Positions 1,181 through 18,780 are shown, counted from the first letter of the stretch. The stretch: 64,000 nucleotides of DNA from Dehalococcoidia bacterium (GCA_050011565.1 JBEKIW010000001.1:448001-512000); one strand, 5' to 3'. Notes: generated by a model not told the origin, from the letters alone. A program made the numbers and translations.

Positions 1181-1714
1181 TTACTTAACCACCTCGGCTG
1201 TTGTCTGCTTCTGGGTCTGCAAAATGCCCGGCAAAGCATCCTGATTGGGAATAACCATCGTGATCATGAGTATGCCTTTGTCGCTGGGCGCTGTTACGAC
1301 TTGTGCCTTTCCCGTTGGGTCCTTGTATATCATGCCCTTGGAGACCAATACAATTTCAACCGGGTTCGTCTTGGCCTGCGAACTGGTAAAGTTAAAGAAA
1401 TTATCCGTATTCATGGCAAAAGCGGAGATAGTCCAGAGCTGGGTTGTCATAGACGTCACGCGAAGCGGATGCTGGCTTACGTCGTAAATACAGAGTGAAT
1501 AAATATCATCAGGCGCCGGTCTGACCACGTCCGTGCTCTGGTCTGTAATCGGCGGTTGGAAAACCCACTGGTTGCTGGGAAAGTTGAACTTCTTGGTAAT
1601 TGTTGCTTCCATTATCGCGGTGGGAAGACTGATCGCGACGATCAGGTTTACAATGACGGCCACAACGATGACGGCTAATAGCGTCCATCCTATCCACGGT
1701 ATCCATTTCTTCAT
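1181..1714 (-). CDS. DUF1254 domain membrane-anchored protein
   Basis: N-terminal TM helix; VVRPAPDDIYSLCIYDVS...PLRVT resembles DUF1254; coupled to the DUF1214 gene. Confidence 0.7.
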   Translation of the reverse strand: MKKWIPWIGWTLLAVIVVAVIVNLIVAISLPTAIMEATITKKFNFPSNQWVFQPPITDQSTDVVRPAPDDIYSLCIYDVSQHPLRVTSMTTQLWTISAFAMNTDNFFNFTSSQAKTNPVEIVLVSKGMIYKDPTGKAQVVTAPSDKGILMITMVIPNQDALPGILQTQKQTTAEVVK

Positions 1715-2316
1715 TATTGGCAGCCCTCCTTGACGATGTCCGGCAGCTGCGCTGCCTTCAGTGCATTGGCGGTCGAGTAAGCAGTCCCGGAGTCATGCAG
1801 GCGGAGGTACACATTCAGTGTTTTAGCGTTGCCAGTTGGCAGCCAGTTCCCCTGCTTCTGCGTCCTCGACAGGTATATTTTGAAACTGCCGTCAGGCTCA
1901 AACTTGATATCGGTGGAACTGAACGACCAGCGGTTCTGGTCATTGGCTATCAGGAAGCCATTCTCGTTGTAAACAGTGACATTCCAATATCCTGACTTGG
2001 GCGCCGGGCCCTGTATCACATAGTCACAGTTGGCCGCCAGCGGCTGCCCGCTGTCATCGGTGTAAGCGGCCAGGTAAATGCTTAAGGATGCGCTTACTGC
2101 CATAAGCCCGTTTTCAGCGACCCAGGCCTTGATATAGGGATTTGCACCGCTGCTGCCATAGGCCAGGTTGGTTGTCCAGGGTCCGTTCTTGATGTTGCTC
2201 CCACTGGTGACCAGATTGGCAACGGGGTTTACGGTGACAAAGCCGATGGCAGCGCCCGCAACCAAGGCTATCGCGGCAGCTATCAGGAACTTGTAGATGG
2301 CTTTTATGTTAATCAC
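1714..2316 (-). CDS. DUF1214 domain protein
   Basis: DDSGQPL...Y.I.G...YWNVTVY...DGSFKIYLS...GNWLPT...LNVYLRL is typical of DUF1214; start codon uncertain. Confidence 0.8.
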   Translation of the reverse strand: MINIKAIYKFLIAAAIALVAGAAIGFVTVNPVANLVTSGSNIKNGPWTTNLAYGSSGANPYIKAWVAENGLMAVSASLSIYLAAYTDDSGQPLAANCDYVIQGPAPKSGYWNVTVYNENGFLIANDQNRWSFSSTDIKFEPDGSFKIYLSRTQKQGNWLPTGNAKTLNVYLRLHDSGTAYSTANALKAAQLPDIVKEGCQ

Positions 2317-2319
2317 CTC

Positions 2320-2446
2320 CTATATATTTGTAACTAGAGCGATGAAAGCGATGAAAGCGATGAGGATGATGGCAGTCCAAGCCGGTCATGCCCTTCTGTT
2401 CTTTCAGGAGTATAAGCCGTATATATGTGAATAACCTATTATACAC
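2320..2446 (-). pseudogene. Remnant of an archaellin/class III signal peptide gene
   Basis: Reads KEQKGMTGL, then after a 2-bp deletion TAIILIAFIAFIALVTNI-stop; matches the archaellin N-terminus G|MTGLETAIILIAF. Confidence 0.55.
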
Positions 2447-2758
2447 AGCTAACCATGCACGCACAAGGGCCGTTCGGTACAATAAATATGACCCGTTAGG
2501 TCAATAAGGTGCTTCGTAAATGCGGCTTGCCAGGGCACAAGATGATAGTTGTGTTTCAGGCGGAGTTCGACCCTGCCTCGCCTCCCCGTCTATTGACCTC
2601 TCCCCTACACAATCCGTCAAATTGTGCGGTACGGGTTCAGTGGAAGAATCTTTGGAAAACACTGCCGGGCCACCACAGTTTTTTTCAAACTGATTGACGA
2701 ACATAACTCCTGCCGCTATAGTAAGAACTGGACAGAGTAACTATTGACGGAGAGATTC

Positions 2759-3469
2759 ATGCGTTTCTTGGATTTGGATTTGGATTTCTTCCTGAATGAC
2801 AACGCTTACTGCAGCGAATGTGACAAATGTGACAGCGGAAGGCTAGGTTCAGAGTATAAGCCATGGAGTGCCTCTAAGGTACGGCACTTTCTTGAGGAGA
2901 GATGTGGCCTCTCACCTGATGCCCCGGTACAGGGGCGCACGGTAGAAAGTCATGATGGAGTATTTGACTTCTGGCGTACGCTCATTGAATCTGGTGGTCT
3001 CAGGGTACCATTTGAAGTGATACACATAGATGCTCACCCCGACCTGTGGGTAGGGGGCGGGCTGTATCTGAGGTCAGAGTTTCTGCATGTTGACTCGGAA
3101 CGTGGGCTTGCGATGCTCAATAGAAAACACGTTCATTCGGGTAACTACTTGACTTTTGCCATTGCGTACGGATGGATAGCCTCTCTTGTGTGGGTTCCTC
3201 TCCGCAAGCACTTGAAAGGTCTGCCCAAATGGGACGGTGATGCAAGGTCCGATTTAATACAGTTCAAGAAGAGAAAAGGTGAAGGCCCTATCCAAGAGTT
3301 ACCCGTGGTAGAAAGGGACCCCGGTGTTCCCTTCAAGATATTACCCTGGCATAAGTTCAGAACAAGTGAAACATTTGACTACATTGCGTTTAGCAGATCG
3401 CCGAACTTTACTCCGCCTGAAAGTGACGAATTGATCCCCATCGTTGAGGGGTACATGAGACAAATATGA
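2759..3469 (+). CDS. UPF0489 family protein
   Basis: MRFLDLDLDFF, VIHIDAHPDL, GNYLTFAIA and SRSPNFTP motifs. Confidence 0.75.
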   Translation: MRFLDLDLDFFLNDNAYCSECDKCDSGRLGSEYKPWSASKVRHFLEERCGLSPDAPVQGRTVESHDGVFDFWRTLIESGGLRVPFEVIHIDAHPDLWVGGGLYLRSEFLHVDSERGLAMLNRKHVHSGNYLTFAIAYGWIASLVWVPLRKHLKGLPKWDGDARSDLIQFKKRKGEGPIQELPVVERDPGVPFKILPWHKFRTSETFDYIAFSRSPNFTPPESDELIPIVEGYMRQI

Positions 3470-3798
3470 TTCAACATTCTTTGCGCTCTCATATGTTATT
3501 TGCGGATATATGTACTTGCGTCCAGTGCCCTTGGCTACCCACTGCCTGCTCCTGAGGCTATGATGGTGCATGGACTAACTTAGAAAATGGTAACACTTCG
3601 GGGGGCAGGTCAACTAGCACGGTCAATATGCCTTAGAGATTAGCATAGATTGTCTTGGTTGTTTGTTAAGCGGCCGGGAGCTCCCTTGAACGTACAATAC
3701 AGCGATTCTGCTAACAAAAAGCCAAACCGTGTGACCGTTTACGGAGTTGTCGGCGAGCTAAAAGCCCTGTGTGACTGGTAAGATTTGCGGTTTAAGAC

Positions 3799-4341
3799 CT
3801 AGGTAGCTCTCGGTTTTAGTGGGCGTAATGACTTAAACCATTTATTCTCATCAGCATATTGATTAAGTTTATCTCTTAATTCCTGGGTATTGTTTGCTTC
3901 TTCTTGTTTTACCAAATAAGGTCCAGTTTTCTTTCGATTCGGAAGTTCAGATTCACCCACTCCTTTGCTGACAAGACTTGTATAGATCGTTATCAGAGCC
4001 TCAAGTATTCTAGTCTCAACAGATTCCGGCCCAGGATGAATAAAACACAATCCATCCACATTTTCAACGAGAAATGAACGAATGACGTCTGCAATTATGA
4101 TATCCTGCTTCTCTGCCTCACTATCTAAAACTTCAAAGATTAACTTTTTATTATTCCTTAAGATGAAATATACGTCTGGCTGATAATTCACAACAAGTTT
4201 TGAACGAGCCTCAACTATTGAAAGAGGGCGCTCACTACCACGATAAACTTTCTTAATTTTCTTCTGACTTCTCCAATCACTACCTAATGTAATTAAGCAG
4301 GCCTCAACTTTTCTATGATATTCCGTAGCCATGACAATCAC
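3799..4341 (-). CDS. Hypothetical protein, possible PD-(D/E)XK nuclease fold
   Basis: 180-aa ORF with EYH...YQPDVYFILRNNKKLIFEV, a PD-x(n)-E pattern lacking the canonical Lys. Confidence 0.6.
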   Translation of the reverse strand: MIVMATEYHRKVEACLITLGSDWRSQKKIKKVYRGSERPLSIVEARSKLVVNYQPDVYFILRNNKKLIFEVLDSEAEKQDIIIADVIRSFLVENVDGLCFIHPGPESVETRILEALITIYTSLVSKGVGESELPNRKKTGPYLVKQEEANNTQELRDKLNQYADENKWFKSLRPLKPRAT

Positions 4342-4451
4342 TATCGTCGGGCGAGAAATGAAACCCTTTTTTTCCTCTTACTCCCTTTAGGACGGATATA
4401 AAAAGTAACTCGTTTTCTTCTTGTCTTCTTGCTGCCTTTCTTGTCTGCCAT
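4341..4451 (-). CDS. 36-aa highly basic peptide (below ORF-track cutoff)
   Basis: AGGTGA RBS, then MADKKGSKKTRRKRVTFYIRPKGSKRKKRVSFLARR; TAG overlaps the GTG of the downstream ORF. Confidence 0.55.
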   Translation of the reverse strand: MADKKGSKKTRRKRVTFYIRPKGSKRKKRVSFLARR

Positions 4452-4783
4452 AAAATCACCTAACTCTGCTAAATATTGCCACTGGTATTATATGGAACTT
4501 ATTACCAGGAAATCAATTGAGCAGACCATCTGTATAGTGGCCTACGGTGTTGTTAAACTCCTGAATTAGACTTTATTGAACATTACATCGTTTTGTTAAC
4601 TGCCAGCTGTACCTCTGGTTACACACTTAGAAAAACAATCTGCAGACTCGTTACAATCACTCACACACCCGCACACACGGTTTACACTCCAAAAAAATTG
4701 TTCACACACCCGATACACACCTTTTACACTCGGAAAAATCGCTCACATACCCCATACACACCGTTTACACACCCTTTACATAT

Positions 4784-4820
4784 AAAGTTACAAATTAGTG
4801 TGACACTATCCTGTAACTTT
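4784..4820. promoter_or_regulatory. 37-bp interrupted palindrome at the centre of the array
   Basis: AAAGTTACA-aat-TAGTGT-g-ACACTA-tcc-TGTAACTTT; function unknown. Confidence 0.6.
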
Positions 4821-4994
4821 AGTTACAAAACAATGTAGCAGAAACTTGCAACCTTGTATGTGGAGTGAAGGTGAAGCAGATGAAATCTATGACTACGGTG
4901 GTTTTCTGAGTGTGATGGTGAAAGTGAAGGATTTTTCCTTGAGTGTAAAACGATAGTGAAGGGAGAGTAAAGGTTTTTCCTTCGAGTGTAGACC

Positions 4995-5249
4995 GATAGT
5001 GAAGGGAGAGTAAAGGAAAATGAAGGTCGTATCCGTCTAAATCAAGCGAGTGTAAGGTTGAGTATAAAAGGAGAGTAAGTCGAGAGTAAAGAAATTTTCT
5101 CCGAGTGTAAAGTGATAGTGAAGGGAGAGTAAAGAAAAATGAAGGTCGTATCCGTCTAAATCAAGCGAGTGTAAGGTTGAGTATAAAAGGAGAGTAAGTC
5201 GAGAGTAAAGAAATTTTCTCCGAGTGTAAAGTGATAGTGAAGGGAGAGT
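4995..5249 (+). repeat. 119-bp near-perfect tandem duplication (about 2.1 copies)
   Basis: Units start at 4995, 5114 and 5233 with GATAGTGAAGGGAGAGT. Confidence 0.95.
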
Positions 5250-5448
5250 GAAGCCCCAGTGACTGATAGTGAAGGGAGAGTAGATGAGAGTAAGGAGAGT
5301 AAAGGTTTTCGCTTTACACTCGAATTCAGTTTATTTTTTCAGTTTTTAAAATCAATGATTTTCGGATAACACCAAACAAAACGATGTTTCGTGCAAAAGG
5401 GTGTAGTCTCATGCCCTCTTTTTCGTCAAAGGCGCCTTGCGTATTCGG

Positions 5449-6054
5449 TTATTCATCCTTTATGCATAGGCAGCTCTGGAAAAGTCCCAGATACAGATTT
5501 CTTCTTTCAACCACACGAAATCCAGATTCTACCAATGTCTTGAATAATTCCGGCCACTCAAATCTAGACTCCATAGGATGATGAATTTTAAGAAAATGCT
5601 CTAAATTGTCCAAGGCTTTTTTACGTGGCTCATGAACTAATAGAACTCCGCCACATTTCAGTACTCTATTTATCTCTTTAAGAGCAATGCGCCATTCAGG
5701 TACATGGTGAAGAACATCAAAGGCAAAAACCGCATCAAATTTCTCCGATGGTAGTAAAATATGAGTTACGTCCCCCACAAATAGATTCGCTGGCAATCCC
5801 CTTTGCCTGGCAAGCTCAATCTCCTCCGGCAAAACATCGAAAGCGAAAAGTTCTTTCGGTTGGAACTCCTCCATTATCAGCTGTGAGCTATAACCAGAAC
5901 CACAGCCAACATCCAGTATTACCTTGTTGGTTAAATCAATATGATTGTCCTTAAGGTACTGTTTAAAAGACCTAAACTCATAGTGTTTTTGGCAGACTTC
6001 CCTCACCACACTATTGACAAGCCTTAATTCTTTTCTATCTATAGCTGAGTACAA
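5449..6054 (-). CDS. Class I SAM-dependent methyltransferase
   Basis: ILDVGCGSG, FDAVF...VLHHV, RVLKCGG. Confidence 0.9.
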   Translation of the reverse strand: MYSAIDRKELRLVNSVVREVCQKHYEFRSFKQYLKDNHIDLTNKVILDVGCGSGYSSQLIMEEFQPKELFAFDVLPEEIELARQRGLPANLFVGDVTHILLPSEKFDAVFAFDVLHHVPEWRIALKEINRVLKCGGVLLVHEPRKKALDNLEHFLKIHHPMESRFEWPELFKTLVESGFRVVERRNLYLGLFQSCLCIKDE

Positions 6055-6301
6055 AGTAACTCCTCAGTTTGAATAGATACCCAGGGATGAAAACCTGTAC
6101 ATTCAACAGCCATGTAAGTCTCGTTTGGTTGCGGTGTTTTCTCCATTATACACCGAGTCCGATCCAAAATAATGCCAGTGGTTGCTAATAAGGTTAGACC
6201 TTTTGACATTGGGAACAGCAGCTGCCATGACTCCAAAAATGGGGGCAAGTACATTAATCCAGAATGTAACATTCTATCTGGATTAGTTTTTGGGGGTCAG
6301 G

Positions 6302-6781
6302 TCATGTTGATGCAGGGAATGGCGGTTTATGGGTAATACCCGCTACCTTAAGAGACTTATTGCGCAGCTTTTCCAGGTATCCATATAATTCCTTGCGCTC
6401 TTGCTTTGTAAGGATTGATAAGACCTGGTTAATAGTCTTTCTATTCAATGAAATATTATAGGCCTGGCGGCCTTTGGGAGTTATGGTAACTCTGACTAGG
6501 TTCTTCTTGTGAAGGTTTTTGGTCCTCTTGATAAGACCATCTTTCTCCATCCTGTCCAGCAAACCAGATACAGAGTGAGGCCGGCGCACGATCCATCTGG
6601 AAATTTCAGCCGGTGTGGCTTCATTGCCGATGGAGTCAATAATAAATAGCGCAGCCGCTTTGATCGTAGATAAACCGTGTTGTTCTAGCTCTCTGTCCCG
6701 AGCGAGTGTGATACCTGAATGAACCTGCTCCAGCATTGTCCATAGGTTATAGATTTCATCAGTAGAATAACTCCCTTTCAT
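6302..6781 (-). CDS. MarR family transcriptional regulator
   Basis: TPAEISRW...SVSGLLDRMEKDGLIKR...VRVTITPKG winged HTH. Confidence 0.9.
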   Translation of the reverse strand: MKGSYSTDEIYNLWTMLEQVHSGITLARDRELEQHGLSTIKAAALFIIDSIGNEATPAEISRWIVRRPHSVSGLLDRMEKDGLIKRTKNLHKKNLVRVTITPKGRQAYNISLNRKTINQVLSILTKQERKELYGYLEKLRNKSLKVAGITHKPPFPAST

Positions 6782-7167
6782 TTTACCACCCCATTTAAAA
6801 CATTAATATAGGAATTTTTCCTATACGTACTATTGATCTATTTTATCACAATGGAATATCGAATTATATGTAAAACTGTTTTGCACGTTATGGCTAATTG
6901 TTCAGCACAATGTGCTTTGATTCTTTCATAAGGCGTACAATGTAAGATCCTTTGAGACCACTTTGCTCACTCCTTTCTATTTCATTGAAGAATAGAATAT
7001 GCTGTTTACTCCGCCAGACTGTCCTAACCCTACCTATAAAGCCATAGGGGTGCACACTGAGCTAGACAGATTTACCGAGTGTGATATAATTACACATGCG
7101 AATGATGAAAAACAGCAAGTTAAAAAAAGAGATGGCAGCTTACTTATGAGTTGAAAGAGCTTTTACT

Positions 7168-8181
7168 ATGTCAAATCTTTTGTACCGAACAGGACTGGGG
7201 AAGTACCTCGTAGGAGATTCTCGGGATTTTCTTAGAGGGAAACTAGGTAAAGAACTCCAGAACAAGGTTCAGTTAATTCTAACATCACCGCCATTTCCCC
7301 TCAATAATAAAAAGCACTATGGTAACTTAGAGGGCAAAGCGTACAAAGACTGGTTTACGAGTCTTGCAGAAATCTTCTCCAAGCTTCTCACGGACAACGG
7401 CTCAATCATCATTGAACTCGGTAACGCATGGGAACCCAGGAGGCCTGTCCAGTCTCTGCTACCAGTAGAATCGTTGCTGGAGTTTGTGAAGAATCCAAAA
7501 GCGGGACTCAGGCTTTGCCAACAATTTGTCTGCTACAACCCCTCTCGACTTCCAACTCCGGCACAATGGGTAACAATCAAACGGATGCGAGTAATCGATA
7601 GCTTCACACACATTTGGTGGATATCAAAGACAGATTACCCGAAAGCAGATAATCGAAAGGTACTGAGGCCTTACAGCAAAAGTATGAAATCCCTTCTCAA
7701 GAAAAAATCATACAATGCCGGCAAGAGGCCATCAGAACATGTCATTGGAGCGAAAAGCTTCTTGAAAGACAATGGCGGCAGCATCATACATAATTTAATA
7801 GAGCTAGAGCCGATTGACGAAAAAAGGGATTTGCGTTTACCTAATGTCTTCAGTATTGCCAATACAAAGTCTAACGATTTCTACACGAGAACCTGCCGTG
7901 AAAGAGGCATTCCCCTGCATCCTACGCGTATGCCTTTAGGGATTGCCTGCTTTTTTATAGAGTTCCTCACGAACCCAGGAGACCTTGTGCTTGACCCATT
8001 TGCAGGGAGCAACACTACCGGTTTCTGCGCCGAAAAGCTTGCTCGTCAATGGATCGCCATAGATATAGATAAAGAATATGGAAAATTTTCCGCGGTCAGA
8101 TTTGAAGACCCGTCCATCAAGGTGCCTCTGATTAAAGAGTTTTCGGAGGAAGACAATGAATGTGCCCGGGACAATACTTAA
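7168..8181 (+). CDS. Site-specific DNA methyltransferase, beta class (probably N4-cytosine)
   Basis: Motif IV TSPPF N-terminal; HPTRMP and motif I VLDPFAGS C-terminal, as in M.PvuII-type enzymes. Confidence 0.9.
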   Translation: MSNLLYRTGLGKYLVGDSRDFLRGKLGKELQNKVQLILTSPPFPLNNKKHYGNLEGKAYKDWFTSLAEIFSKLLTDNGSIIIELGNAWEPRRPVQSLLPVESLLEFVKNPKAGLRLCQQFVCYNPSRLPTPAQWVTIKRMRVIDSFTHIWWISKTDYPKADNRKVLRPYSKSMKSLLKKKSYNAGKRPSEHVIGAKSFLKDNGGSIIHNLIELEPIDEKRDLRLPNVFSIANTKSNDFYTRTCRERGIPLHPTRMPLGIACFFIEFLTNPGDLVLDPFAGSNTTGFCAEKLARQWIAIDIDKEYGKFSAVRFEDPSIKVPLIKEFSEEDNECARDNT

Positions 8182-10156
8182 GTTAGCATCGATCGATATC
8201 TTCCAAGAAGGCAAGAAAAAGGAAACCTTCATCGGACGGCCCTTCTATCTTGATTACAATAAAGCCTGCCTTTTAGTTGCTGATTCATGGAAAAGGAAAG
8301 TCGGTGGCATACCTCAAGGAGCTTTTTTGCTTGCTTTCTACGAGAACGAGGAGAACGTGTCTGAGGCCCTGCTTCTGAGAGCTCTCGGCCCCACTAAGTT
8401 ACCAACTGATAGTGACGTAGTTAGCTCAATGATTGAGTACTATAAAGACAACACCAAAACCGCCGGTAAGGAGACTCAGCTCGATGACTTTACTCGCTAT
8501 GAATTCAGCTTTTCTGGACTTGAGTGCCGCGCTCTCGGCACATTTTACAAAGACCGCAAAGACAACACTACCTTCGGTGCCGATGTAGAGAACTTCTACA
8601 GTGCGCACAACTACAGTGTGTACAAGCCAACTGGTAATATCTTGGAGGTAATATCCAATTTGCGCGACGCGGCTTATATCCCGGGTAACCCTGCCGATGT
8701 TAGGCTCGGCAGAGTAAGGTACAGCTCAAGCCAGAGATTCCAAGAAAAGGAAGACGATGTGCCAGTCTATGTCAGCCCAAAAGATTTTCTAGGTAAAAGA
8801 ACAGCCCTATTCGGTATGACCAGAACTGGCAAATCCAATACAGTTAAGAAAATAATACAGGCCACAGTAGACATTAGCCAGAAGGCGAAGTCTAAGCTAG
8901 CTGAGGGGGCCAAGGATGTTCAAGATAACCTTGATCCATTTATTGATGATGGATCACCAAAATATCCGGTAGGGCAAATAATTTTTGATATGAACGGTGA
9001 ATACGCTAATGCTAACCTGCAAGATGCCGGTACTGCGATCTTTGAACTTTACAAGCAAGATGTTATCAGATATAGCGTGTTAGAAAAGCCAGATTTCAAG
9101 GTAATGAAGACAAATTTTTACACCGATATATTGGCGGGGTTCGATTTAGTCAAATCTTACATTCAGTACGATGCGGGGGATTATGTCAAAAGCTTCACAT
9201 CCATAGATTTGCAAGAACCAGAAGACAAGCAGGATTTCTCAGCCTCAACTAGATATGAGCGAAAAGTAGCAGCATATCTCTGTTGCCTCTATCAGGCTGG
9301 ATTTAAGGCTCCAAAAGACTTTAAAGTCAAATTTAGCGGTAACAAAGAGCTACAAGCAATCGCACCAAGTGATCCGGAAAAGGGTATGACACTGCCCGAA
9401 GCGGCAGGTTGGTTTAGCAACGTTTGGGACGAATATGATGATTTCCAGTTTTTCGCCGATTATAAGAAAAAGTCGGGCCACGAGTGGGCGGATGAGGATC
9501 TCAAAGCAATCCTAATTTTCCTGTCAAGGAAAACCAAGCCAGGCGGAAACCCCACAGTCAGTGGCTATAAAAAACTGAGAGGTATAATCAACCTACACAC
9601 ACAAACGGTAGAAAAACCTTTCCAAAAAGACATAAAGGATTCCTTACGGGAAGGTAAAATAGTCATCATTGATTTATCACAAGGCGAGCCGGACATCCAA
9701 CGTCTCTATTCTGAAAGAATCTGTGCAGAGATATTTCAGGACGCCATGCAGAGATTTACTAGCAATAAGCCCAACAACTTTCTCCAATTCTATTTTGAAG
9801 AGGCACATAACCTTTTCCCAAGGAAAGAGGACAAAGATCTAAGCCAGATATATAATCGGCTGGCAAAAGAAGGCGCTAAACTGAATCTGGGCTTAATTTA
9901 TGCAACGCAGGAAGTTAGCTCAATTAGCCCTAATATTTTGAAAAATACGCAGAACTGGTTTATCGCGCATCTGAATAACGAGGATGAGCTTAGAGAAATC
10001 AGAAAATATTATGACTTCTCAGATTTCGCAGAAAGCCTAATCAGGTTCAATGCGAGTACCGACAAGGGATTTGTACGTATGAAAACATATTCAAATCCTT
10101 TTGTTGTTCCAGTTCAAATAGATAGATTCATTGTCAAAAAGGAGAATCTTCAATAA
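8156..10156 (+). CDS. herA: HerA/DUF87 family ATPase (DNA translocase)
   Basis: Walker A FGMTRTGKS, IIFDMNGEY, Walker B FYFEEAHN, RLAKEGAK..L..ATQ. Confidence 0.88.
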   Translation: MNVPGTILKLASIDIFQEGKKKETFIGRPFYLDYNKACLLVADSWKRKVGGIPQGAFLLAFYENEENVSEALLLRALGPTKLPTDSDVVSSMIEYYKDNTKTAGKETQLDDFTRYEFSFSGLECRALGTFYKDRKDNTTFGADVENFYSAHNYSVYKPTGNILEVISNLRDAAYIPGNPADVRLGRVRYSSSQRFQEKEDDVPVYVSPKDFLGKRTALFGMTRTGKSNTVKKIIQATVDISQKAKSKLAEGAKDVQDNLDPFIDDGSPKYPVGQIIFDMNGEYANANLQDAGTAIFELYKQDVIRYSVLEKPDFKVMKTNFYTDILAGFDLVKSYIQYDAGDYVKSFTSIDLQEPEDKQDFSASTRYERKVAAYLCCLYQAGFKAPKDFKVKFSGNKELQAIAPSDPEKGMTLPEAAGWFSNVWDEYDDFQFFADYKKKSGHEWADEDLKAILIFLSRKTKPGGNPTVSGYKKLRGIINLHTQTVEKPFQKDIKDSLREGKIVIIDLSQGEPDIQRLYSERICAEIFQDAMQRFTSNKPNNFLQFYFEEAHNLFPRKEDKDLSQIYNRLAKEGAKLNLGLIYATQEVSSISPNILKNTQNWFIAHLNNEDELREIRKYYDFSDFAESLIRFNASTDKGFVRMKTYSNPFVVPVQIDRFIVKKENLQ

Positions 10157-11518
10157 ATGGGATATAGCAGTAGAAGAGGTCGCAGACCACAAGAAAATGC
10201 CAGCAAGTCATCTCATAGCTACATTGTCAATGACCCCACTGTTATTGATTTTCTCCACAAGTGTGATCTGCCAAAGATGGCAGCAGAGATTTCGCTTCCA
10301 CAAGTTCTCAAATCCAAAGTTGAAAATGTTAACAAGAATCCGATTAACTATGTTATTGCGATCGATGGGGGATATTCCGAGGTCTTCGTAAGAAAGGAAT
10401 TTCCATCTTCTACCATCACTTTCTTTCAATTCGGAGTGCTCGCATTCAATGTTACCGACTTGGAGGATCTAGGGGAACAACCGTTTATTGATCCCGAAGA
10501 TATAGCGAAGTTAAAGAACATACAGAGGCTAAAACTGACCATCCCAACAAAGAATATTAGTTTGACGGGCGAGAAGTCATTGACAGATTCTGTTAGAAGA
10601 GCACTTTATGACTTCTTTAAAGCAAAGGTAGAGGGAGAACAGCTCCTAAAGACGCTAAAATGGTTCATATTTAATGAATATCAAACACCCTCCTCGCAGT
10701 GGAATCTGGCCACTTGCCCTAATATCCAGTCAGATCTGCATAACGTCCTGCTTGACAAAAACAAGATGCAAAGTGATTTCACTTTTACTTGCGAAAAGTG
10801 CGGAGAGAGGATATTCCTCACTGATGTTTTTCGACTTCACGAAGCAATCGATGACGAGCTCGGAGCAGGCGGCATACTCGGCTACACTACGGTGCTCATT
10901 GAACAAATGCTGCTTGTTCACTTGCTTAAGGTTATTCTCAATACCAAACCTTCTCTGTTAAATGAGATTATCTTCATCAAAGATGGGCCATTGGCTTTTT
11001 TTGGACAGACAGCGAACATGCACAAGCCTATGAGGCAACTGGCCAATTTCCTCCTCGGGAAATATAACTTGTACCTGGCCGGGCTTGAGAAGAGTGGTTC
11101 TTTTGTCGACCATGCTGATGAAATAGCCAATAAGCTTGAACTGGGCGAGGTACTCCTGCTTAACAATGAGTATATCTATAAATACATTATTCCTAGCAAT
11201 GCGGATACAAGCGCCCCCTATGCAAGATCATCTTATTACGGAGGAAAACTCATATATAAAGCTAGAAGTGGTGGAATTTATGTTGTGACAGTCCCGGTGA
11301 AAGACGAGAAAGTTGTATTATCTCCAAGCCGGAAGGATTTTCAAAACTTAGATATTATATTGAGTAATATAGAAAAACTCAGATGCGATATGTATGATTC
11401 TGCGCTTATTCCAGTGGCCTTAGTGAATAAACTTGTTTCATTAGCGGACCACCCAAGTTCAGCCATTCTCGAAAGATTTGCTAAAGCGGGAGTAGGAGCA
11501 CCCAGAGTGGTCAATTAA
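10157..11518 (+). CDS. nurA: NurA family nuclease
   Basis: VIAIDGG and IKDGPL acidic motifs, GLEKSG, IPVAL; starts immediately after the herA stop. Confidence 0.8.
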   Translation: MGYSSRRGRRPQENASKSSHSYIVNDPTVIDFLHKCDLPKMAAEISLPQVLKSKVENVNKNPINYVIAIDGGYSEVFVRKEFPSSTITFFQFGVLAFNVTDLEDLGEQPFIDPEDIAKLKNIQRLKLTIPTKNISLTGEKSLTDSVRRALYDFFKAKVEGEQLLKTLKWFIFNEYQTPSSQWNLATCPNIQSDLHNVLLDKNKMQSDFTFTCEKCGERIFLTDVFRLHEAIDDELGAGGILGYTTVLIEQMLLVHLLKVILNTKPSLLNEIIFIKDGPLAFFGQTANMHKPMRQLANFLLGKYNLYLAGLEKSGSFVDHADEIANKLELGEVLLLNNEYIYKYIIPSNADTSAPYARSSYYGGKLIYKARSGGIYVVTVPVKDEKVVLSPSRKDFQNLDIILSNIEKLRCDMYDSALIPVALVNKLVSLADHPSSAILERFAKAGVGAPRVVN

Positions 11519-11801
11519 CTTGAGAATTTTGCCTCAAAAGTGGTCATTTATCTTGAGAATCGACACAATCCACGGTATTGCCATTACAACATGACAGTTG
11601 TGAGAATATGCCGACTTCGACGGGATGGGAGTGATCAGGACAAAGAGAAGTTGTCTTATCGGGATGGGTATTGGAACACATTCTGACGAAAAGTGCAGAC
11701 TGTACCACTTATTTGTGGTTGAGACGATGAAGAGTCTGACTCCATCGGAAACTCAGGGTTATGGCGCGACTAGGTCGATACAACAAGCTGAGGCACACCA
11801 A

Positions 11802-14438
11802 TCACTTGGCCCAGACAATCTCTTTGGCCGCCCCAATATTACTGTATCGGCCTGGCACACAGGTGAAAATCACAATCTGGCATTCCTTTGCCGCTTTGGC
11901 TAGTACGGCGCCCATCAGGGACAATCTTTCCGGATCAGTATAGCCAAGTGTATCGTCGACAATTACTGGAGCACCACCATCTGTGGCTACTATCATCGCG
12001 CACGCCAAGCGAAAGATTAGCGAAAGCTGCTCCTTTGTTCCCCCACTCAAGCTATCGAAACCAACCGTGATATTATTCAATGTGCGGCTGACTATTTGTA
12101 GATCGTCACTTATCTCTACCTGAAAGGTATGGTCGAAAACTAGGCGACCTAGTGCCTCAATCCTCTCCCTAAGCGGTGCGACATAAGCGTGACGTGCCCT
12201 GTCACGTTCCTCAGACATAGTCCTATAGAGCAGATTTGCAGCTTCCGCCCGTTTGGCTAACGACGCGTTTTCATGTTCAGCGCGCGAGAGCGCAGTCCGA
12301 GCAACGCCTAATTTATCATAGAGGCCATCCTCTCCGTTGATCTTGAGGCGAGTAGTTACCTCTGTTAGCTCTTTTTCTGTCTTTTTCATCTGTTGCTGTA
12401 TTCTGGTTAATGACTCTCTGGCCGTCTTATCAAGTTCCCTTTCCTGCTCCGGGTTGAGCACTCCGAGCGTTGCCTCGGCATCTTTAACGTCGGTCTCTGC
12501 CTTTGCCAACACCTTTACTGCGCTTTCGAGTGCTACACTGACCCCTTCATCGGGCACAGTCGCTCTCTCTTCTTCCAACGTTTTCTCAAGGCCGACCAAA
12601 TGCTGCTTTTGATGCTCCCACACAGATCGCGCTTCTATGTAGTCTCCATTCCGGCGTTCACATAGTTTTTTTACCTCATCGAAGGCTGCCTTTGCCTCGT
12701 TCCATTCTGTTTCAAGACCGTGCTGCTTCTTCTCCAATCTCGCCAATTCGGTTTTTGTTAGATCAGAGCTATCCAATATTGATGGCTCTGACACCCGCGC
12801 GGGCAGATAAGCTGGCACGGTCTGCTGTAATCTCAACAGTCGGCCTGCCAACTCGTCATAAGAAAGGTCCCGCAGATTATCCTTCTCAACCCGCCTCATT
12901 TCCGCGATCTGTCTAGAGGCCTCTTGCCTTTCCTGAAAAGCCTCTCGTGCCTTATCTGCACCAGTAATCCCCAGAGAGGCGCAGACCTCGCTTAGCTTCG
13001 CCTCGGCATCCTCAACCTTCTTTGAAAGCGTGTCAACACTGGAACCGGCTGTTATCTCCATCTCCAATTTATCGGGCACGACTAAATTGACCTTGTCAGG
13101 TACCTGAAAGGAAAGCTCTTTCCCTTGTCCCAATTTGACGGTGGTGCCATCTTTGATCAACCTGCATTCTTGTAATCCGCGCAACAAGACAGCAGGAGCC
13201 TTAGCTTCTCGTTTTGCCCTTGCGGTTATTACTTCGGCCTGAGCCGCCTCAATGGCCCGAAGAGCTTCTTCGTCAACCCTATTTGTTGCTAGAATTGCCT
13301 GTGAGTGAGCGGCCATCTCCCTTGCTCGGTCAACACGATCCTTACGTTCTTGCAGTAGTTCAAGGTCAAGCTTGGCACGAAAATAGTCATAGTCGCGCCG
13401 CCGCAAATCGGTCAACTCACGGATTTCTTTCAGCTTTCTTTCGGCGGCATTGCAAGCTGTCTCTGCCGTTTTGGACTCGTCCCTGGCTTGGTTGAGTGAA
13501 GCAAGCCTCGAATCTGTAGATTTGCCCATTTCAGCTTCCGCCTTGGTAGCATCCGAGACCTTGTTGACAAGCTCTTCGCGCGCTCTCTTATCCGCGCGTG
13601 CTGCCTTTTCCGAGACCTTTGCCACTTGCAGGTTAAGCCTCGCCTCCGAGAGACGCTGATCCAGTTCGGTTATCTGTTTGAGTTTGTCTGAGCGGTTTTC
13701 CAATTCGTTCGCAATCGTCTGCTCAGAGTATTCGAGCTCACCTAATTCCCGTCTGAGATCACTAGCTCGATCGATATCATGCTCGAGGTCACGCAGCGCC
13801 TCTTCAAACTTCTGAACTTCCGATTGGCAATCTGATAATGCCTGGCGACATTCCTCCAGCTCTTTCTTCTCGGCTCCTCCTGGAGTGAAATAGTTTGAGT
13901 ACTCCGCATGAACCGCTTCGAAGAGGCTTTCAGCTTTCGGATCAGTCGAATGTCCGCCAGCTGCCCGATCTAGTGCTTGAGAAAGCCAAGTCTGCTCTGT
14001 AAGTTTTGGCTGCTTAATCTCTGCGCCTTGCCTAATGCTCAAAGCTTTCCAAAGATTGACGTCCAAGGTTCCCCTAAGTATTGCGTCTGCGCGCTCGTGG
14101 GCTCGCCTGCCGGTCAGACTCTCGGCTTTTGGCTTGGTAATGGTGAGCCTGGTCTCCGGTTTCTTGAAATAACGCTTAAAGTACGTGAACTGATAGGGGC
14201 CGCTCTCCGCCTCTAGTTCGATCTCTGTCCCTTCGTCGCGATGAACCGGCCTGATGGCCATGAGATCGCTGTGCTTGCTAGAATCCGCATATCCAAAGAG
14301 AATCCAGACTGCCTCCCCTAAACTGGTTTTTCCTATCTCATTGGGGCCTCTAACCAGAGTGATACCGGTTCCGGCGAATTCTGCCTCACGCTCGGAAACG
14401 CCCCTATAATTGGCAATCCGCAAACGGACATATCTCAT
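11802..14438 (-). CDS. Rad50/SbcC-like SMC ATPase (Rv1278/YhaN-like)
   Basis: Walker A GPNEIGKT, long coiled coil, signature LSGGTKEQ, Walker B/D-loop IVDDTLGYTD. Confidence 0.9.
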   Translation of the reverse strand: MRYVRLRIANYRGVSEREAEFAGTGITLVRGPNEIGKTSLGEAVWILFGYADSSKHSDLMAIRPVHRDEGTEIELEAESGPYQFTYFKRYFKKPETRLTITKPKAESLTGRRAHERADAILRGTLDVNLWKALSIRQGAEIKQPKLTEQTWLSQALDRAAGGHSTDPKAESLFEAVHAEYSNYFTPGGAEKKELEECRQALSDCQSEVQKFEEALRDLEHDIDRASDLRRELGELEYSEQTIANELENRSDKLKQITELDQRLSEARLNLQVAKVSEKAARADKRAREELVNKVSDATKAEAEMGKSTDSRLASLNQARDESKTAETACNAAERKLKEIRELTDLRRRDYDYFRAKLDLELLQERKDRVDRAREMAAHSQAILATNRVDEEALRAIEAAQAEVITARAKREAKAPAVLLRGLQECRLIKDGTTVKLGQGKELSFQVPDKVNLVVPDKLEMEITAGSSVDTLSKKVEDAEAKLSEVCASLGITGADKAREAFQERQEASRQIAEMRRVEKDNLRDLSYDELAGRLLRLQQTVPAYLPARVSEPSILDSSDLTKTELARLEKKQHGLETEWNEAKAAFDEVKKLCERRNGDYIEARSVWEHQKQHLVGLEKTLEEERATVPDEGVSVALESAVKVLAKAETDVKDAEATLGVLNPEQERELDKTARESLTRIQQQMKKTEKELTEVTTRLKINGEDGLYDKLGVARTALSRAEHENASLAKRAEAANLLYRTMSEERDRARHAYVAPLRERIEALGRLVFDHTFQVEISDDLQIVSRTLNNITVGFDSLSGGTKEQLSLIFRLACAMIVATDGGAPVIVDDTLGYTDPERLSLMGAVLAKAAKECQIVIFTCVPGRYSNIGAAKEIVWAK

Positions 14439-15565
14439 GACAGACCACCACTCAACCTAACCAGCAACGCAAGCGCGTCGCGGGCGGTTCTCTTCTCCAT
14501 TCCCTCCCCGACCATCTTTTCACGCAATTGCCTTACGGTCGCTTCAGCGAACCCGGAGAAATTAAGGCCGGAGAAATCTGCATCGTTCGGCAAAACTAAC
14601 AACTCATCATCACTCATTTGAAAAGACGCGAATACGTCGCCGATGGTAGCCAGAAATTGCCGCAGGATCGCCTCCTGGGTGAGGGAAATAGACCCCACTA
14701 GGTTCAGCCGGAGTACCGTCAGTTCCTTTCGGTCTATGCTTTCCAGCATGCTTCGCAACGCCTCGATGTCCTCGGAGCAGTTGATATCAACGCGATTCTT
14801 CTCGACAAAGCGCCACTGACCGACTGGGGCAGGTGTCGCAATCACTTTATCGCCATCCAATTCAACAATTTGTACATAGCCAGTCTCACCTTCCCCGAAG
14901 TCCGTAACCTCTGGCGTGCCAGAATACCAGATACGCTCACCCTCACCGATCTTAGTGCGTGAATGGCGGTCACCCAACGCCACAAAGGAGGCCTTTCTCT
15001 CTTCGATGACACGCTCTAGACTATCTGCCGTAAGTACCCCAAGGTCATCCTTTCTGGGTGTAAACAAATCGACAATACCGTGCGCCAAGATAATCCGGGT
15101 GACGCCAGTTAGTGGTTCAAGTGACTTCGTCGCTTCGTAAAATGGGTTCACTGGCATGCGCTTTGACAGCCATGGGGCCCCAACCAGTTCGACGTTGTGA
15201 TCCGCTTGGATCGGGGTTGCATCGCTAATCACATTGACGTTAGCCGGTTTCCCTTGCACAAAGCTCTTGGAGGAATAGACCGAGGCCTCATTCAGGGGAT
15301 CATGATTACCGGGCAGAATCCAGACGGGGAGTGGGACTTCCTTGAGCGCCTCAAGGGCACGCGCAACCGTTTTTCGGTCTACCTGGTTGGATTCAAACGC
15401 ATCTCCGCAGACTACTACGAACTGGCAATTAGATTCCGTTGCAATTTTGCCGAGCGTGCGGATCGCATCAAAGCGTGCCTGGTTGAAACGCTCCTGAGCC
15501 CCCTCGGAGAACAAGTAGCGAGTCATGCCAAGCTGCCAATCGCTTGTGTGGAGGAAACGAACCAT
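14435..15565 (-). CDS. Mre11/SbcD-like DNA repair exonuclease (Rv1277-like)
   Basis: FLHTSDWQLG, CGDAFE, PGNHD, LAHG, ALGDRHS, YSGTPE; 4-nt overlap with the SMC gene. Confidence 0.9.
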   Translation of the reverse strand: MVRFLHTSDWQLGMTRYLFSEGAQERFNQARFDAIRTLGKIATESNCQFVVVCGDAFESNQVDRKTVARALEALKEVPLPVWILPGNHDPLNEASVYSSKSFVQGKPANVNVISDATPIQADHNVELVGAPWLSKRMPVNPFYEATKSLEPLTGVTRIILAHGIVDLFTPRKDDLGVLTADSLERVIEERKASFVALGDRHSRTKIGEGERIWYSGTPEVTDFGEGETGYVQIVELDGDKVIATPAPVGQWRFVEKNRVDINCSEDIEALRSMLESIDRKELTVLRLNLVGSISLTQEAILRQFLATIGDVFASFQMSDDELLVLPNDADFSGLNFSGFAEATVRQLREKMVGEGMEKRTARDALALLVRLSGGLS

Positions 15566-15928
15566 ATCTTACCTCGCCTCCCTAGAACTAACTCGAACTT
15601 CACACGCCTCGAAAAGGGCCCTTTGACACCTGCGTATTATACTCTTTTGTGACTATTGTTCAAAGTCTCCTTTATTGGACTCTGGCCACAATTCATCCCG
15701 ACGAAGCCTTGCACCGGTAATTCTAAATGACGCTCTGCGTAATTTCTGAATGTAGACTGCACATTCCTGACATTTGTTACCTTACTACTACATGATCATT
15801 CGGGACAGATCCCGAACTCCTGTTTGACAAGAGACTTATTCCGTCACCGTTGCGGTTGGTTGTATTTACCTTTTTCCATTAAACACATGAAATGTGTAAA
15901 ATTAAGGTATTTGGGGAGAGATTTCAAA

Positions 15929-16561
15929 ATGGAAGAGGCACATAAACATGCCCGATTAAATGAAAAGAAGTGGGATTCGAGGGCAGAGACATATGATAAA
16001 TTATTTCACCGCTTTTACTTTCATTTCACACAAAAGCGGGTCGTTTCCTTATTAAATCTACATGAAAATCAATGCTTTCTGGATGTGGGTTGTGGCACTG
16101 GCTGGGCAGTACGTTATGCAGCTAGCTTAGTTAAAAACAAAGGGACATTCTATGGTATTGATATTTCATCCAAGATGATAGAGAAAGCAGACAAGAATTG
16201 CGGTGGTTGCGAAAATATCTATTTTTACAAAGCCGATGCTGCGGCTCTCCCCTTTGAAAGCGATTTTTTTGACTTCATCATATGTACCAGTTCATTTCAC
16301 CATTATTTCAACCCTTCCAAAGTGCTAGATGAGGTTTACCGGGTCTTGAAACCCAGAGGAAAGATATATATCGCGGATGTCACTACCGATGGATTTATTA
16401 TGAAGATGGTGGAGAAATGGTTGCAAAAGAAAGAGCCCGAACATATAAAACAATATAGTACTCGAGAGTTTAAGACACTTTTTACTAAGTCAGGACTGAA
16501 CTATATCACAAGCAAATTGATCACACCGCCGATGAAGGTTCATATTGCGGAAAAACATTGA
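15929..16561 (+). CDS. Class I SAM-dependent methyltransferase (UbiE-like)
   Basis: LDVGCGTG, ADAAALPF, SFHHY, RVLKPRG; ATG at 15929 follows GGGGAG. Confidence 0.88.
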   Translation: MEEAHKHARLNEKKWDSRAETYDKLFHRFYFHFTQKRVVSLLNLHENQCFLDVGCGTGWAVRYAASLVKNKGTFYGIDISSKMIEKADKNCGGCENIYFYKADAAALPFESDFFDFIICTSSFHHYFNPSKVLDEVYRVLKPRGKIYIADVTTDGFIMKMVEKWLQKKEPEHIKQYSTREFKTLFTKSGLNYITSKLITPPMKVHIAEKH

Positions 16562-16756
16562 CAGGTGGATTCAGTTCAAAGCAAGCTTTGGACAATACCA
16601 TTGAACGAAAACTCATTTTGTGCACAGTCTCGAGACACCGGTATAACCTTATCAGGTGGATATAGGTGAATAGTTGGCTTGACAGCTAGATTGCACGAGC
16701 TTAAGATAGCCATACCAATTAGCATTGAACCCTCGGCAATGGATGGTAAGGTATTT

Positions 16757-18490
16757 ATGGAGCAGCAGATAGGCTTTTGCACCAGTGCTAATGGTGCCCG
16801 AATTGCCTATGCCACGTTAGGCAATGGGCCAGCGCTAGTTATACCCGCAACGTGGCTCAGCCATCTACAATTGTCTTGGCAGGACCCTGATACACGTCGC
16901 TGTTTTGAAAGGCTGGCAGCCCACCATACCCTGGTGCGCTATGACCAGCGTGGCAGCGGCCTATCAGACCGAAACCGAACTGACTTTACCTTAGAGGCCG
17001 AAGTTAATGACCTGGAAACGGTCATTGACCATCTCAAGCTAAAACGAGTGGCCTTGCTAGGAACTTCTTGTGGCGGACCGACTTCCATAGCTTATGCAAC
17101 CAGATATCCTCGTCGGGTCAGCCATCTGATTCTCTACGGCACGTATGCCAGTGGTCAGGCTGTGGCCATGGAGGAAGTCAGAAAGGCATTTATCTCTCTG
17201 GTAAGAGCCCACTGGGGAATCGGCTCCAAGACCATTGCTGACCTTTTCTTCCCTGGTGCCTCTCCGAGCATAGTAGAACTATTTGCCAAGTTACAGCGCG
17301 AAAGCGCCACCCCAGAGATAGCTGCTGAACTACTGGGCCTGGTATACAAAGTTGATGTTGCCTCGCTCTGCCCCAATCTCCGAGTGCCGACGCTAGTACT
17401 GCATCGCAAAGACGAGAGGGCTATACCGTTCAAAATGGGCAGGGAACTGGCATCCCTGATACCTAATGCCCGCTTTGTCCCGCTTGAAGGAAACCTCCAC
17501 ATTCCATGGTTTGGGGATTCCGAGCCGATACTGCGCGCCATCGCCGAGTTCTTGGGCGACCCGATCACCACTGGGAAGCCAGCGGCGCCGGAACGTGGCG
17601 CAGCCGTTGACGACTCCATCGCAAATGAGGCTAGGTCATTCGTCACTAAGCTTGATTGTGTCGTCTTATCCCGCTATCGCATTGTCGGCAACTATACCAG
17701 ATATGATGAAACCGTGCGCAACACCCTAAAGGACATCCGGCACAAGATTGCAGGCGGCTTCGACCATCCCAGTCGGAAGCGGGAAAACTACCTTATCTGG
17801 GCTGCGCCCGGCAGCGGCAAGACCTATTTCGTCCAGCAGGTAGCTGCCTCACTGCCTCCGGCCGTCCGTTATCAGGAGTGCAATCTGGCTAAATGCAGCC
17901 GCGAAGAGCTTCTCAAAATACTGGCCCAGCTCGATGCCAGGAATAAATCTTGCCTCTGCCTCATCGATGAGGTCGATGCCAAGCCCGATGAAGCCTGGCC
18001 TTACGAGGTGCTCTTACCATACCTGGATGCTGGCGCTGATAGAGACACGCAGTTTGTCTTCGCTTTGGCAGGCAGTTATGGCTCTAGTCTCGTCGAGATG
18101 AAAAAGCAGATTGCTTTACGGCCTAAAGGTGCTGACCTATTAAGTCGCATTCCAGATGGCAACGAATATGAGATCCCACCAATGAATCTTGGAGATAGGC
18201 TGATTGTGGTACTGAACCAGTTCAGACAGGTAGGACGTGAAATGAACCGGGATGTGCAGTCAGTGGAAAAGCTCGGCTTGTATTATGTCGCGCTCAATTC
18301 ACGCTTATCTAATGCTCGCCAACTGCATGAGCTAGCAGTCCGTGCTATCGAGCGCTTACCAACAGGCGAAGACAGGGTGAAATATGATCACCTGTTTGGT
18401 GCCGGAGATCCAGAGAACAAGGCTTTCTGGATGCAGTCGCTCCCCGCTGCTGTAGACCTCGCTAATAGGTTCGTCATGCTAGAGGATTGA
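16757..18490 (+). CDS. Alpha/beta hydrolase fused to an AAA+ type P-loop ATPase
   Basis: RYDQRGSGLSD and GTSCGG in the N-half; AAPGSGKT and CLIDEVD in the C-half. Confidence 0.8.
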   Translation: MEQQIGFCTSANGARIAYATLGNGPALVIPATWLSHLQLSWQDPDTRRCFERLAAHHTLVRYDQRGSGLSDRNRTDFTLEAEVNDLETVIDHLKLKRVALLGTSCGGPTSIAYATRYPRRVSHLILYGTYASGQAVAMEEVRKAFISLVRAHWGIGSKTIADLFFPGASPSIVELFAKLQRESATPEIAAELLGLVYKVDVASLCPNLRVPTLVLHRKDERAIPFKMGRELASLIPNARFVPLEGNLHIPWFGDSEPILRAIAEFLGDPITTGKPAAPERGAAVDDSIANEARSFVTKLDCVVLSRYRIVGNYTRYDETVRNTLKDIRHKIAGGFDHPSRKRENYLIWAAPGSGKTYFVQQVAASLPPAVRYQECNLAKCSREELLKILAQLDARNKSCLCLIDEVDAKPDEAWPYEVLLPYLDAGADRDTQFVFALAGSYGSSLVEMKKQIALRPKGADLLSRIPDGNEYEIPPMNLGDRLIVVLNQFRQVGREMNRDVQSVEKLGLYYVALNSRLSNARQLHELAVRAIERLPTGEDRVKYDHLFGAGDPENKAFWMQSLPAAVDLANRFVMLED

Positions 18491-18780
18491 TCGCGCCTCA
18501 CCAACACCCAACCTCGCACGAAGTAAACAAAACATTAAACAATATAGCGTTTTGTTCAGTCAATCATAAGAGGCAATGAACTATCGGTTAAAGACCTAGG
18601 GTAGTCGTACGCGTGTTGCGTCAAAATAAACTGTTACCGAACAGGACATGGTTGAATTTTTTCCGAATTTCTTCTATAATTTTGTTGATTTGGCTCCTCG
18701 ATGGTGAAAGAACTGCAGGTCGTTAGGGCTATAAAACAGTAGATTTAGCTTCAAATCGGGGAGAAATAACGAGCCACGTT

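Follow-up and report, generated by a model that had tools for sequence, protein, structure and literature searches.

A mobile methyltransferase-HerA-NurA gene cassette in a Dehalococcoidia bacterium, a candidate restriction-modification-like defense system

A 64,000-nucleotide stretch of the genome of a Dehalococcoidia bacterium (GCA_050011565.1, JBEKIW010000001.1:448001-512000; referred to here as the window) encodes, in three tightly coupled genes, a DNA methyltransferase (MTase), a HerA-type ATPase, and a NurA-like nuclease. The trio is a mobile accessory cassette and not a host repair system. With modest confidence, based on sequence and on analogy with the phosphorothioate (PT)-dependent Tdp system, we favor the interpretation that it acts as a restriction-modification (R-M)-like defense cassette, a methylation-based Tdp analogue in which HerA-NurA would replace the restriction endonuclease (REase). 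Rare linkage to an MTase had been named beforehand as an outcome that would refute this idea. Such rarity is clearly not seen: the MTase adjoins herA-nurA in 51/56 loci of the close clade and in 16/17 loci of more distant clades.

Gene organization and protein identities

Three plus-strand open reading frames (ORFs) were called, coupled exactly as an earlier note on this DNA had described. The MTase and HerA ORFs have 26 nt in common (8156-8181), and the ATG of nurA directly abuts the TAA stop of herA (caaTAAATGgga), with a ribosome-binding-site-like aaaggag upstream of nurA (Table 1). The candidate promoter 5' of the MTase gene was the top site of a promoter scan (11/12 matches), in a region whose site total did not exceed the shuffled expectation. 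Compared with 4.35-kb windows across the genome (mean G+C content, 0.489; standard deviation, 0.024), the trio (0.428) ranks in the bottom 1.8%. The trio is also more AT-rich than the adjoining gene (G+C content, 0.512), as the earlier note had remarked.

The MTase matched the Pfam family N6_N4_Mtase (E = 2.1e-29; 103.5 bits versus a cut-off of 26.7), the generic PADLOC model MTase_II (E = 4.5e-82), and, over its full length, the solved N4-cytosine MTase M.PvuII (PDB 1boo; E = 3.3e-69; query residues 6-320, chain residues 10-302). SPPF (motif IV, residues 40-43) lies N-terminal to DPFAGSNTT (motif I, residues 276-284), which is the beta-class motif order. The family match and the motif order confirm that this is a beta-class SPPF methyltransferase, as first read from the sequence. 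SPP[FY] and DPFxGSxTT were intact in 39/39 cassette MTases, and the middle part of these proteins, presumed to serve target recognition, was conserved as strongly as the catalytic parts.

HerA has the length of 666 amino acids (aa) and the Walker A motif GMTRTGKS (residues 220-227) that had been claimed for it, and this motif is invariant among its relatives. The protein matched Pfam DUF87 (E = 1.2e-14), and its AlphaFold model (mean predicted local distance difference test [pLDDT], 78.7), which aligns to HerA structures over nearly the full length, shows the Walker A P-loop, an N-terminal barrel, and the fold typical of HerA. The best PDB sequence match was TdpA, both for the single sequence (E = 1.3e-18 versus 3.1e-10 for the second match) and for a 27-sequence profile (E = 2.7e-29; runner-up, 5.3e-16). 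In PADLOC-DB v2.0.0, partial matches were obtained to HerA models and to mad8. For the middle region and the N-terminus, Pfam searches (E up to 10) and an ESM Atlas search with residues 235-495 returned nothing other than HerA, and a separate methyl-reader domain was not recognised.

The NurA-like protein is a weak match by sequence alone. It scored below the gathering threshold of Pfam NurA (PF09376; E = 0.094; 12.6 bits versus a cut-off of 21) and had no match in NCBIfam or PADLOC-DB v2.0.0; among 120 listed relatives, about a dozen have a precomputed match to PF09376. The predicted structure supports the identification of a NurA fold. The AlphaFold model, made with 72 diverse homologues, reached a pLDDT of 95 and a predicted TM score of 0.92, and a Foldseek search with it returned TdpB at the top (E = 3.5e-9), followed by five canonical NurAs. 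The catalytic DG motifs are kept in the 72 sequences, with D70 of AIDGG invariant and D276 and G277 of IKDGP nearly so; a 2026 review lists these DG motifs, I and II, as the NurA catalytic core (PMC13748450). At the C-terminal helix that would correspond to motif III (LxxAHxxxA/V...), the family consensus shows no conserved His; a nearly invariant H319 (FVxHA) lies elsewhere. The Cys-containing insert noticed earlier is present in the window's protein as C187, C212, and C215; its family consensus is CPxxxC...CPxC, and it is modeled as four short strands (residues 181-220). The family comprises 724 clusters at 50% identity (E up to 0.001). A caution for annotation is that many genes labeled "DNA double-strand break repair nuclease NurA" probably have no role in repair.

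The statement that the locus holds no classical REase is supported. Family-profile scans of the ORFs flanking the trio found no restriction endonuclease family, and no homologue of R.PvuII was found in the host genome by tblastn with an R.PvuII-type protein from a related locus (L012), which gave matches only at the level of the helix-turn-helix (HTH). Four small ORFs without a family match are possible nucleases (Table 1); two of them, 3799-4341 and 11625-11903, matched no related locus when used as queries.

TABLE 1 Features of the cassette and its surroundings in the window
Feature	Position	Strand	Remarks
M.PvuII-family beta-class DNA MTase, probable N4-cytosine, 337 aa	7168-8181	+	
HerA/FtsK-class ATPase, 666 aa	8156-10156	+	N-terminal beta-barrel, RecA-like core, helical insertion
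Divergent NurA-fold (TdpB-like) predicted nuclease, 453 aa	10157-11518	+	Cys-rich zinc-ribbon-like insert
Candidate sigma-70-type promoter	7063-7090	+	TAGACA, 16-nt spacer, TG-extended TATAAT; 78 nt 5' of MTase start codon
Rad50/SbcC-like ATPase, 878 aa	11802-14438	-	Convergent to nurA
Mre11/SbcD-like phosphoesterase, 376 aa	14435-15565	-	4-nt overlap with Rad50-like gene
Class I S-adenosylmethionine (SAM) methyltransferase	5449-6054	-	Weak PADLOC mad2 domain match
MarR-family regulator	6302-6781	-	
603-aa protein	16679-18490	+	Alpha/beta-hydrolase domain (53-276) fused to AAA-type ATPase domain (364-485)
Small ORFs	3799-4341, 4593-4838, 6039-6272, 11625-11903		No family match; possible nucleases

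Linkage of the methyltransferase to herA-nurA

Close-clade loci were defined by a NurA at least 53% identical to that of the window. Metagenomes were scanned with a closer 21-sequence alignment, as the 72-sequence alignment had no sufficiently conserved stretch. The scan yielded at least 597 pattern matches, at least 514 of them relatives; the best-scoring 80 were kept, all of the close clade, and 48 of these were informative, reaching at least 3.1 kb upstream of nurA. Of the other 32 loci, 8 end inside an upstream MTase, 1 has a downstream MTase, and 23 are too short. A search of genome contigs with the single window protein returned 3 loci. The MTase was adjoining in 46/48 informative metagenome loci, 5/5 genome loci, and 0/3 plasmid loci, the sum being the 51/56 given above. 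The window's order, MTase-HerA-NurA, was found in 41/48 informative loci. A PvuII-like MTase lay just downstream in 4/48, on the same strand in L073, L074, and L090 and on the opposite strand in L029. The remaining arrangements were seen once each: a different N6_N4 MTase upstream (L052), no MTase but BrxA/BrxB-like genes upstream (L077), and a degraded locus that had lost herA (L065).

The three proteins have diverged together. Co-divergence was examined in 40 loci, 37 from metagenomes together with L003, L011, and the window, and 39 of the 40 have three full-length ORFs; L022, L037, L050, and L055 were excluded as apparent duplicates and L002 and L004 for one split gene. Over the 39 cassettes the pairwise identities of the three proteins were correlated (Mantel Spearman, 0.62, 0.60, and 0.72; 0/999 permutations as high), although some correlation is expected for any linked genes, whatever their function. 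In a quick NurA tree, computed with Shimodaira-Hasegawa-like approximate likelihood ratio support and with long-branch warnings, the MTase-less and MTase-swapped loci were nested among MTase-HerA-NurA loci.

The distant clades comprise 17 loci whose NurA-like protein is 22 to 44% identical to that of the window. The MTase adjoins herA-nurA in 16 of them, at a distance of 2.1 kb in L141, and its position varies (upstream, downstream, or on the opposite strand). It is of the D12/Dam type in L013, L014, L137, L140, L141, L152, L153, and L154 and of other N6_N4 types in L015, L135, L136, L151, L155, L157, L158, and L159. This repeated replacement by nonorthologous MTases points to methylation as such being needed and argues more strongly than any other observation that methylation itself is important for the HerA-NurA pair. 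Given this swapping, a stable complex of MTase and nuclease is also a priori improbable.

Sporadic distribution and mobility

The host genome encodes a canonical pair about 160 kb away, in which a NurA (Pfam E = 6e-29) adjoins a HerA with DUF87 (E = 2e-30) and a HAS barrel. When HerA and NurA of the trio were compared with the host genome by tblastn (E up to 1e-3), only self-matches were obtained. The NurA-like family is sporadic. It occurred in 7/401 genomes sampled from the host's phylum, the host counted, and in 9/401 genomes of a second phylum, counting the center genome, which was picked for having the cassette. It was found in 0/4 genomes of the host's family and was not found in a same-genus genome of 96% completeness. 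Relatives with about 60 to 70% identity occur in Dehalococcoides, Calothrix, Dendronalium, Patescibacteria, Desulfobacterales, "Candidatus Methanomarinus," Terriglobia, Anaerolineaceae, Salirhabdus, Alicyclobacillus, Isosphaeraceae, and Syntrophomonadaceae. This level of identity persists across Chloroflexota, Acidobacteriota, Cyanobacteriota, Bacillota, Planctomycetota, Patescibacteria, and one archaeon, a pattern of frequent horizontal transfer.

Members of the NurA-like family were found on five plasmids, in two IMG/VR contigs, and in two near-identical Vibrio temperate phage records, in which the gene lies between an integrase and a Dam-type MTase; the phage-borne members are located at the integrase-proximal ends of temperate phages. 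Some copies are interrupted. On the Deferribacter desulfuricans megaplasmid pDF308 (L135), an IS200/IS605 element (tnpA plus tnpB) splits herA of an MTase-HerA-NurA cassette. The NurA-like gene of L011 (G276:C47) has one in-frame TGA, and that of L159 (G382:C3) is split into two frames; both may reflect decay or sequencing error.

Flanking genes

Clustering of neighbor genes revealed no universal fourth gene recurring across loci. Directly 3' of nurA, a recurrent optional neighbor is a UvrD helicase, alone or accompanied by a PD-(D/E)XK nuclease, which may be an optional fourth component. It directly follows nurA in L018, L051, L064, L037, L013, and L039, which belong to both close and distant clades, and at times a PD-(D/E)XK/Cas4-like nuclease is joined to it or comes next. 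Type III Res genes recur directly 5' of the MTase; the one in L024 (490-3999; ResIII plus RE_endonuc) has a C-terminal Peptidase_S24 domain and lies directly upstream of the cassette MTase. In L028, a fusion of a LexA DNA-binding domain, Peptidase_S24, and an N6_N4 MTase was seen (743-2530). Schlafen-type helicases, AAA_15/21 with HNH, Cas1, Mrr-like REases, and large REase-helicase-MTase fusions recur as well, and further defense-gene neighbors are a PvuII R-M system and BrxA/B. In L157 (1577-5107) and L158 (1266-5714), Mrr_cat/ResIII/Helicase_C/N6_Mtase fusions of a type ISP/IIG-like kind follow HerA-NurA-MTase on the same strand and recall Tth111II of the Thermus ICEth1 operon.

In the window, the neighbor that the earlier note had called an SMC gene encodes a Rad50/SbcC-like ATPase, partnered by an Mre11/SbcD-like phosphoesterase (Table 1). 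Both proteins scored far under the NCBIfam equivalog cut-offs, and their genes have a normal G+C content (0.51 to 0.53). The Rad50-like protein matched none of the related loci by tblastn, neither protein fell in a recurrent gene cluster, and the Rad50-like protein went undetected in the same-genus genome and in 8/10 genomes of the family. The pair looks to be accessory also. Low G+C content (0.40) continues 5' of the trio through positions 3500-7167, which hold the MarR-family regulator, the class I SAM methyltransferase, and ORFs without a family match. The borders of the island could not be set because the DNA of window positions 1-20000 matched the same-genus genome at two short stretches only.

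Interpretation and alternative explanations

In the mechanism that we propose, the M.PvuII-family enzyme would N4-methylate cytosine at a short site in resident DNA, possibly CAGCTG or a near variant. A HerA hexamer together with a NurA dimer would load at free ends or nicks of injected phage DNA or of transforming or conjugating DNA and would thread it in an ATP-driven manner, with both strands degraded. Methylated sites would stall or disengage the machine, and resident DNA with an accidental break would be spared. There are parallels for this last step: PT reportedly blocks translocation and cleavage on self DNA by the homologous TdpAB, and Chi governs RecBCD. The formation of the HerA-NurA complex, the methylation site, the sensitivity to methylation, and protection against phages or plasmids are the parts of this scheme that we infer. 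The earlier proposal, that the MTase marks self while HerA-NurA destroys unmarked or linear invading DNA, agrees with the linkage, sporadic distribution, low G+C content, mobility, and defense-gene neighbors of the cassette; it must be qualified in view of the MTase-less variants and the precedents of Tdp and ICEth1.

A number of observations weigh against this interpretation. The 41 loci with the window's order include near-duplicates (e.g., L021/L022, L036/L037, L047/L050, L054/L055, and L072/L078), and the indication of defense-island enrichment is anecdotal. Three Nostocales plasmids (NurA 58 to 59% identical) carry a small XRE-HTH gene with HerA and NurA and no MTase within 6 kb. In L156 there is likewise no MTase, and the neighbor is an SNF2 helicase. 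At L077 (2521-4865), the MTase-less HerA-NurA lies between BrxA-like, BrxB-like, and HTH genes on one side and a large serine recombinase on the other. Judging from such MTase-less members, the lack of a linked MTase does not always make HerA-NurA of this family lethal, unless methylation is provided from elsewhere. In L012 (G144), the MTase (43% identical) abuts herA-nurA and is paired, in divergent orientation, with an HTH-R.PvuII fusion, a PvuII-type endonuclease domain joined to an N-terminal, controller-like Cro/C1-type HTH (4928-5764). The MTase there, and probably in L029, seems to belong to a standard Type II pair, and HerA-NurA may be a mere neighbor. The swapping of MTase families also means that the nuclease cannot read one fixed sequence, and how a ring translocase would sense methylated bases (N4-methylcytosine [N4mC] or N6-methyladenine [N6mA]) is a mechanistic question that the interpretation itself poses. 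For a comparable set of genes, that of ICEth1, the sole phenotype in print is DNA donation and not defense (PMC5365140).

The avoidance of CAGCTG, considered as a sign of restriction pressure from the trio, was rejected and counts among these points. This site has the lowest observed/expected value among the 64 six-base palindromes in the host genome (G000; 389 versus 761; ratio, 0.51). In the same-genus genome G402, sampled over 400 kb, it also ranks first (ratio, 0.44), and neither a NurA-like match nor a PvuII-like MTase was found in that genome. CATATG, CGATCG, and GAGCTC follow in avoidance in both genomes. The avoidance is equal in the cassette-less genome; it is lineage-wide and independent of the cassette.

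HerA-NurA could instead be a methylation-independent defense or DNA-degrading module, like Sir2-HerA or DUF4297-HerA, and the MTase a passenger in its own right, be it a PvuII-type R-M orphan or remnant or an anti-restriction or epigenetic gene that merely travels in the mobile cassette. We consider this unlikely in view of the same gene order in 41/48 close loci, the overlapping or abutting genes of the window, the co-divergence of the MTase with HerA and NurA, the catalytic motifs intact in all 39 cassettes, and the other MTase families carried independently by 16/17 distant loci. All the evidence for an R-M-like cassette applies equally to a selfish addiction cassette, in which the MTase would be antitoxin-like, HerA-NurA would kill cells that lose the cassette, and phage defense would be a side effect. 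Frequent occurrence on plasmids and prophages fits this idea, as does the high identity across phyla, which suggests frequent transfer. The persistence of MTase-less variants and the existence of disrupted copies (the IS200/605 insertion in herA on pDF308, the frameshifted NurA in G382, and the loss of HerA in L065) make it quite improbable. Sequence cannot separate addiction from the R-M-like defense that we favor because classical R-M systems do both.

A role in DNA mobilization, with a HerA-like pump and a NurA-like nuclease processing and exporting DNA of the host or of an element and the MTase protecting or marking what is transferred, is suggested by the tdtA operon of ICEth1, whose gene kinds match and whose NurA-like protein and TdtA are needed for transjugation (PMC5365140). 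The large Mrr/helicase/MTase fusions after HerA-NurA-MTase in L157 and L158 and the resemblance of HerA/FtsK ATPases to the VirB4 and TrwB pumps are in keeping with such a role. Family scans of the window ORFs, however, found no integrase, relaxase, or other transfer genes beside the trio, the cassette occurs in many unrelated contexts, and the nearest solved complex is TdpAB; we regard mobilization as very improbable. Least credible of all is the host's ordinary HerA-NurA double-strand break repair, served by the neighboring Rad50/Mre11-like genes and with a coincidental MTase. These genes, convergent beside nurA, do recall the archaeal herA-mre11-rad50-nurA cluster, and L052 also has a Metallophos and AAA_27 pair nearby. 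But a canonical NurA and HerA are encoded elsewhere, the NurA of the trio lies under the Pfam cut-off and its family is sporadic, and the Rad50-like protein lacks a match at related loci, in the same-genus genome, and in 8/10 family genomes.

If the trio is the R-M-like defense cassette that we favor, prokaryotic immunity gains a three-gene system that is both compact and common, with members on plasmids and prophages, and the Tdp system becomes linked to classical methylation-based self-marking. A broader generalization, which we regard as possible but doubtful, is that there is a widespread form of R-M-like immunity without a site-specific endonuclease, in which HerA-NurA would destroy whatever DNA it is able to thread and N4mC or N6mA from interchangeable MTases would halt the motor as the self mark. 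Such immunity would be the methyl-base counterpart of the PT control of TdpAB and the Chi control of RecBCD, and the Thermus ICEth1 "transjugation" operon would belong to the same defense family.

Comparison with known systems

The trio had not been recognised as a named system when first described, and our searches gave the same result. No single system listed in PADLOC-DB v2.0.0 fits it, and a literature search found no paper naming or testing an MTase-HerA-NurA defense system, although an earlier description elsewhere is possible. The closest solved relatives are TdpA for HerA, by sequence, and TdpB for NurA, by structure (PDB 8wet/8wfd/8y1k). As in Tdp, a system of thermophiles, a TdpA-like ATPase and a TdpB-like nuclease are encoded together. 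The modification gene differs: that of Tdp encodes the PT-forming TdpC, whereas the sole modification gene beside herA-nurA among the flanking ORFs is the base MTase of the M.PvuII family. Identity in structural alignments is only about 21% for TdpA and 12% for TdpB, the NurA of the trio has the Cys-rich insert, and its HerA has about 80 residues more. Two sources class Tdp among PT-based R-M systems, with tdpC as the one gene that modification needs (PMC12914056, PMC13223576).

The operon of ICEth1 in Thermus thermophilus HB27 comprises the type IIG REase Tth111II, the NurA-like TTC1878, the HerA-like TdtA, and the pfam01555 N4/N6 methylase TTC1880, and knock-outs of the NurA-like gene or tdtA lower or abolish transjugation, i.e., DNA donation (PMC5365140). 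It thus shares with our cassette the same gene kinds on a mobile element, and L157 and L158 also add a large REase-helicase-MTase gene. It differs in gene order (REase, NurA, HerA, MTase) and in the presence of a type IIG REase, and the likeness seen here is at the level of gene kinds.

Canonical HerA-NurA of archaea, Deinococcus, and Thermus has the folds and catalytic DG motifs in common with the trio. In contrast, the trio's NurA scores under the Pfam cut-off, its family is sporadic, mobile, and MTase-linked, and the host has its own canonical pair. The accessible portion of the 2026 review states that bacterial NurA-HerA mainly degrades foreign dsDNA and does not mention MTases (PMC13748450). 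HerA-NurA of Thermococcus kodakarensis cleaves both strands, and the authors of that work suggest the destruction of foreign dsDNA (PMC12977600). NurA goes unmentioned in the accessible text of a comparative study of "HerA/FtsK capture" defense systems (PMC10853773). Unlike the antiphage systems Sir2-HerA (Nezha) and DUF4297-HerA, which have no modification gene, the trio has a NurA-fold nuclease as its effector. The archaeal herA-mre11-rad50-nurA cluster resembles the window in its adjoining Rad50/Mre11-like genes, but this linkage is not conserved at related loci. With the PvuII Type II R-M system the trio shares a full-length relative of M.PvuII, and L012 retains an R.PvuII-type gene; the host genome, however, is without R.PvuII and the C protein, and herA comes next after the MTase.

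Coupling of a nucleoside triphosphate-driven translocase to a nuclease, governed by DNA marks or sites, is the basis of Types I, III, and ISP R-M systems and of RecBCD with Chi. The motors of those systems are superfamily 2 or superfamily 1 helicases, whereas that of the trio is a ring-shaped HerA/FtsK ATPase. The principle is already known, and MTase-HerA-NurA, which is widespread and apparently unnamed, would be a variant of it.

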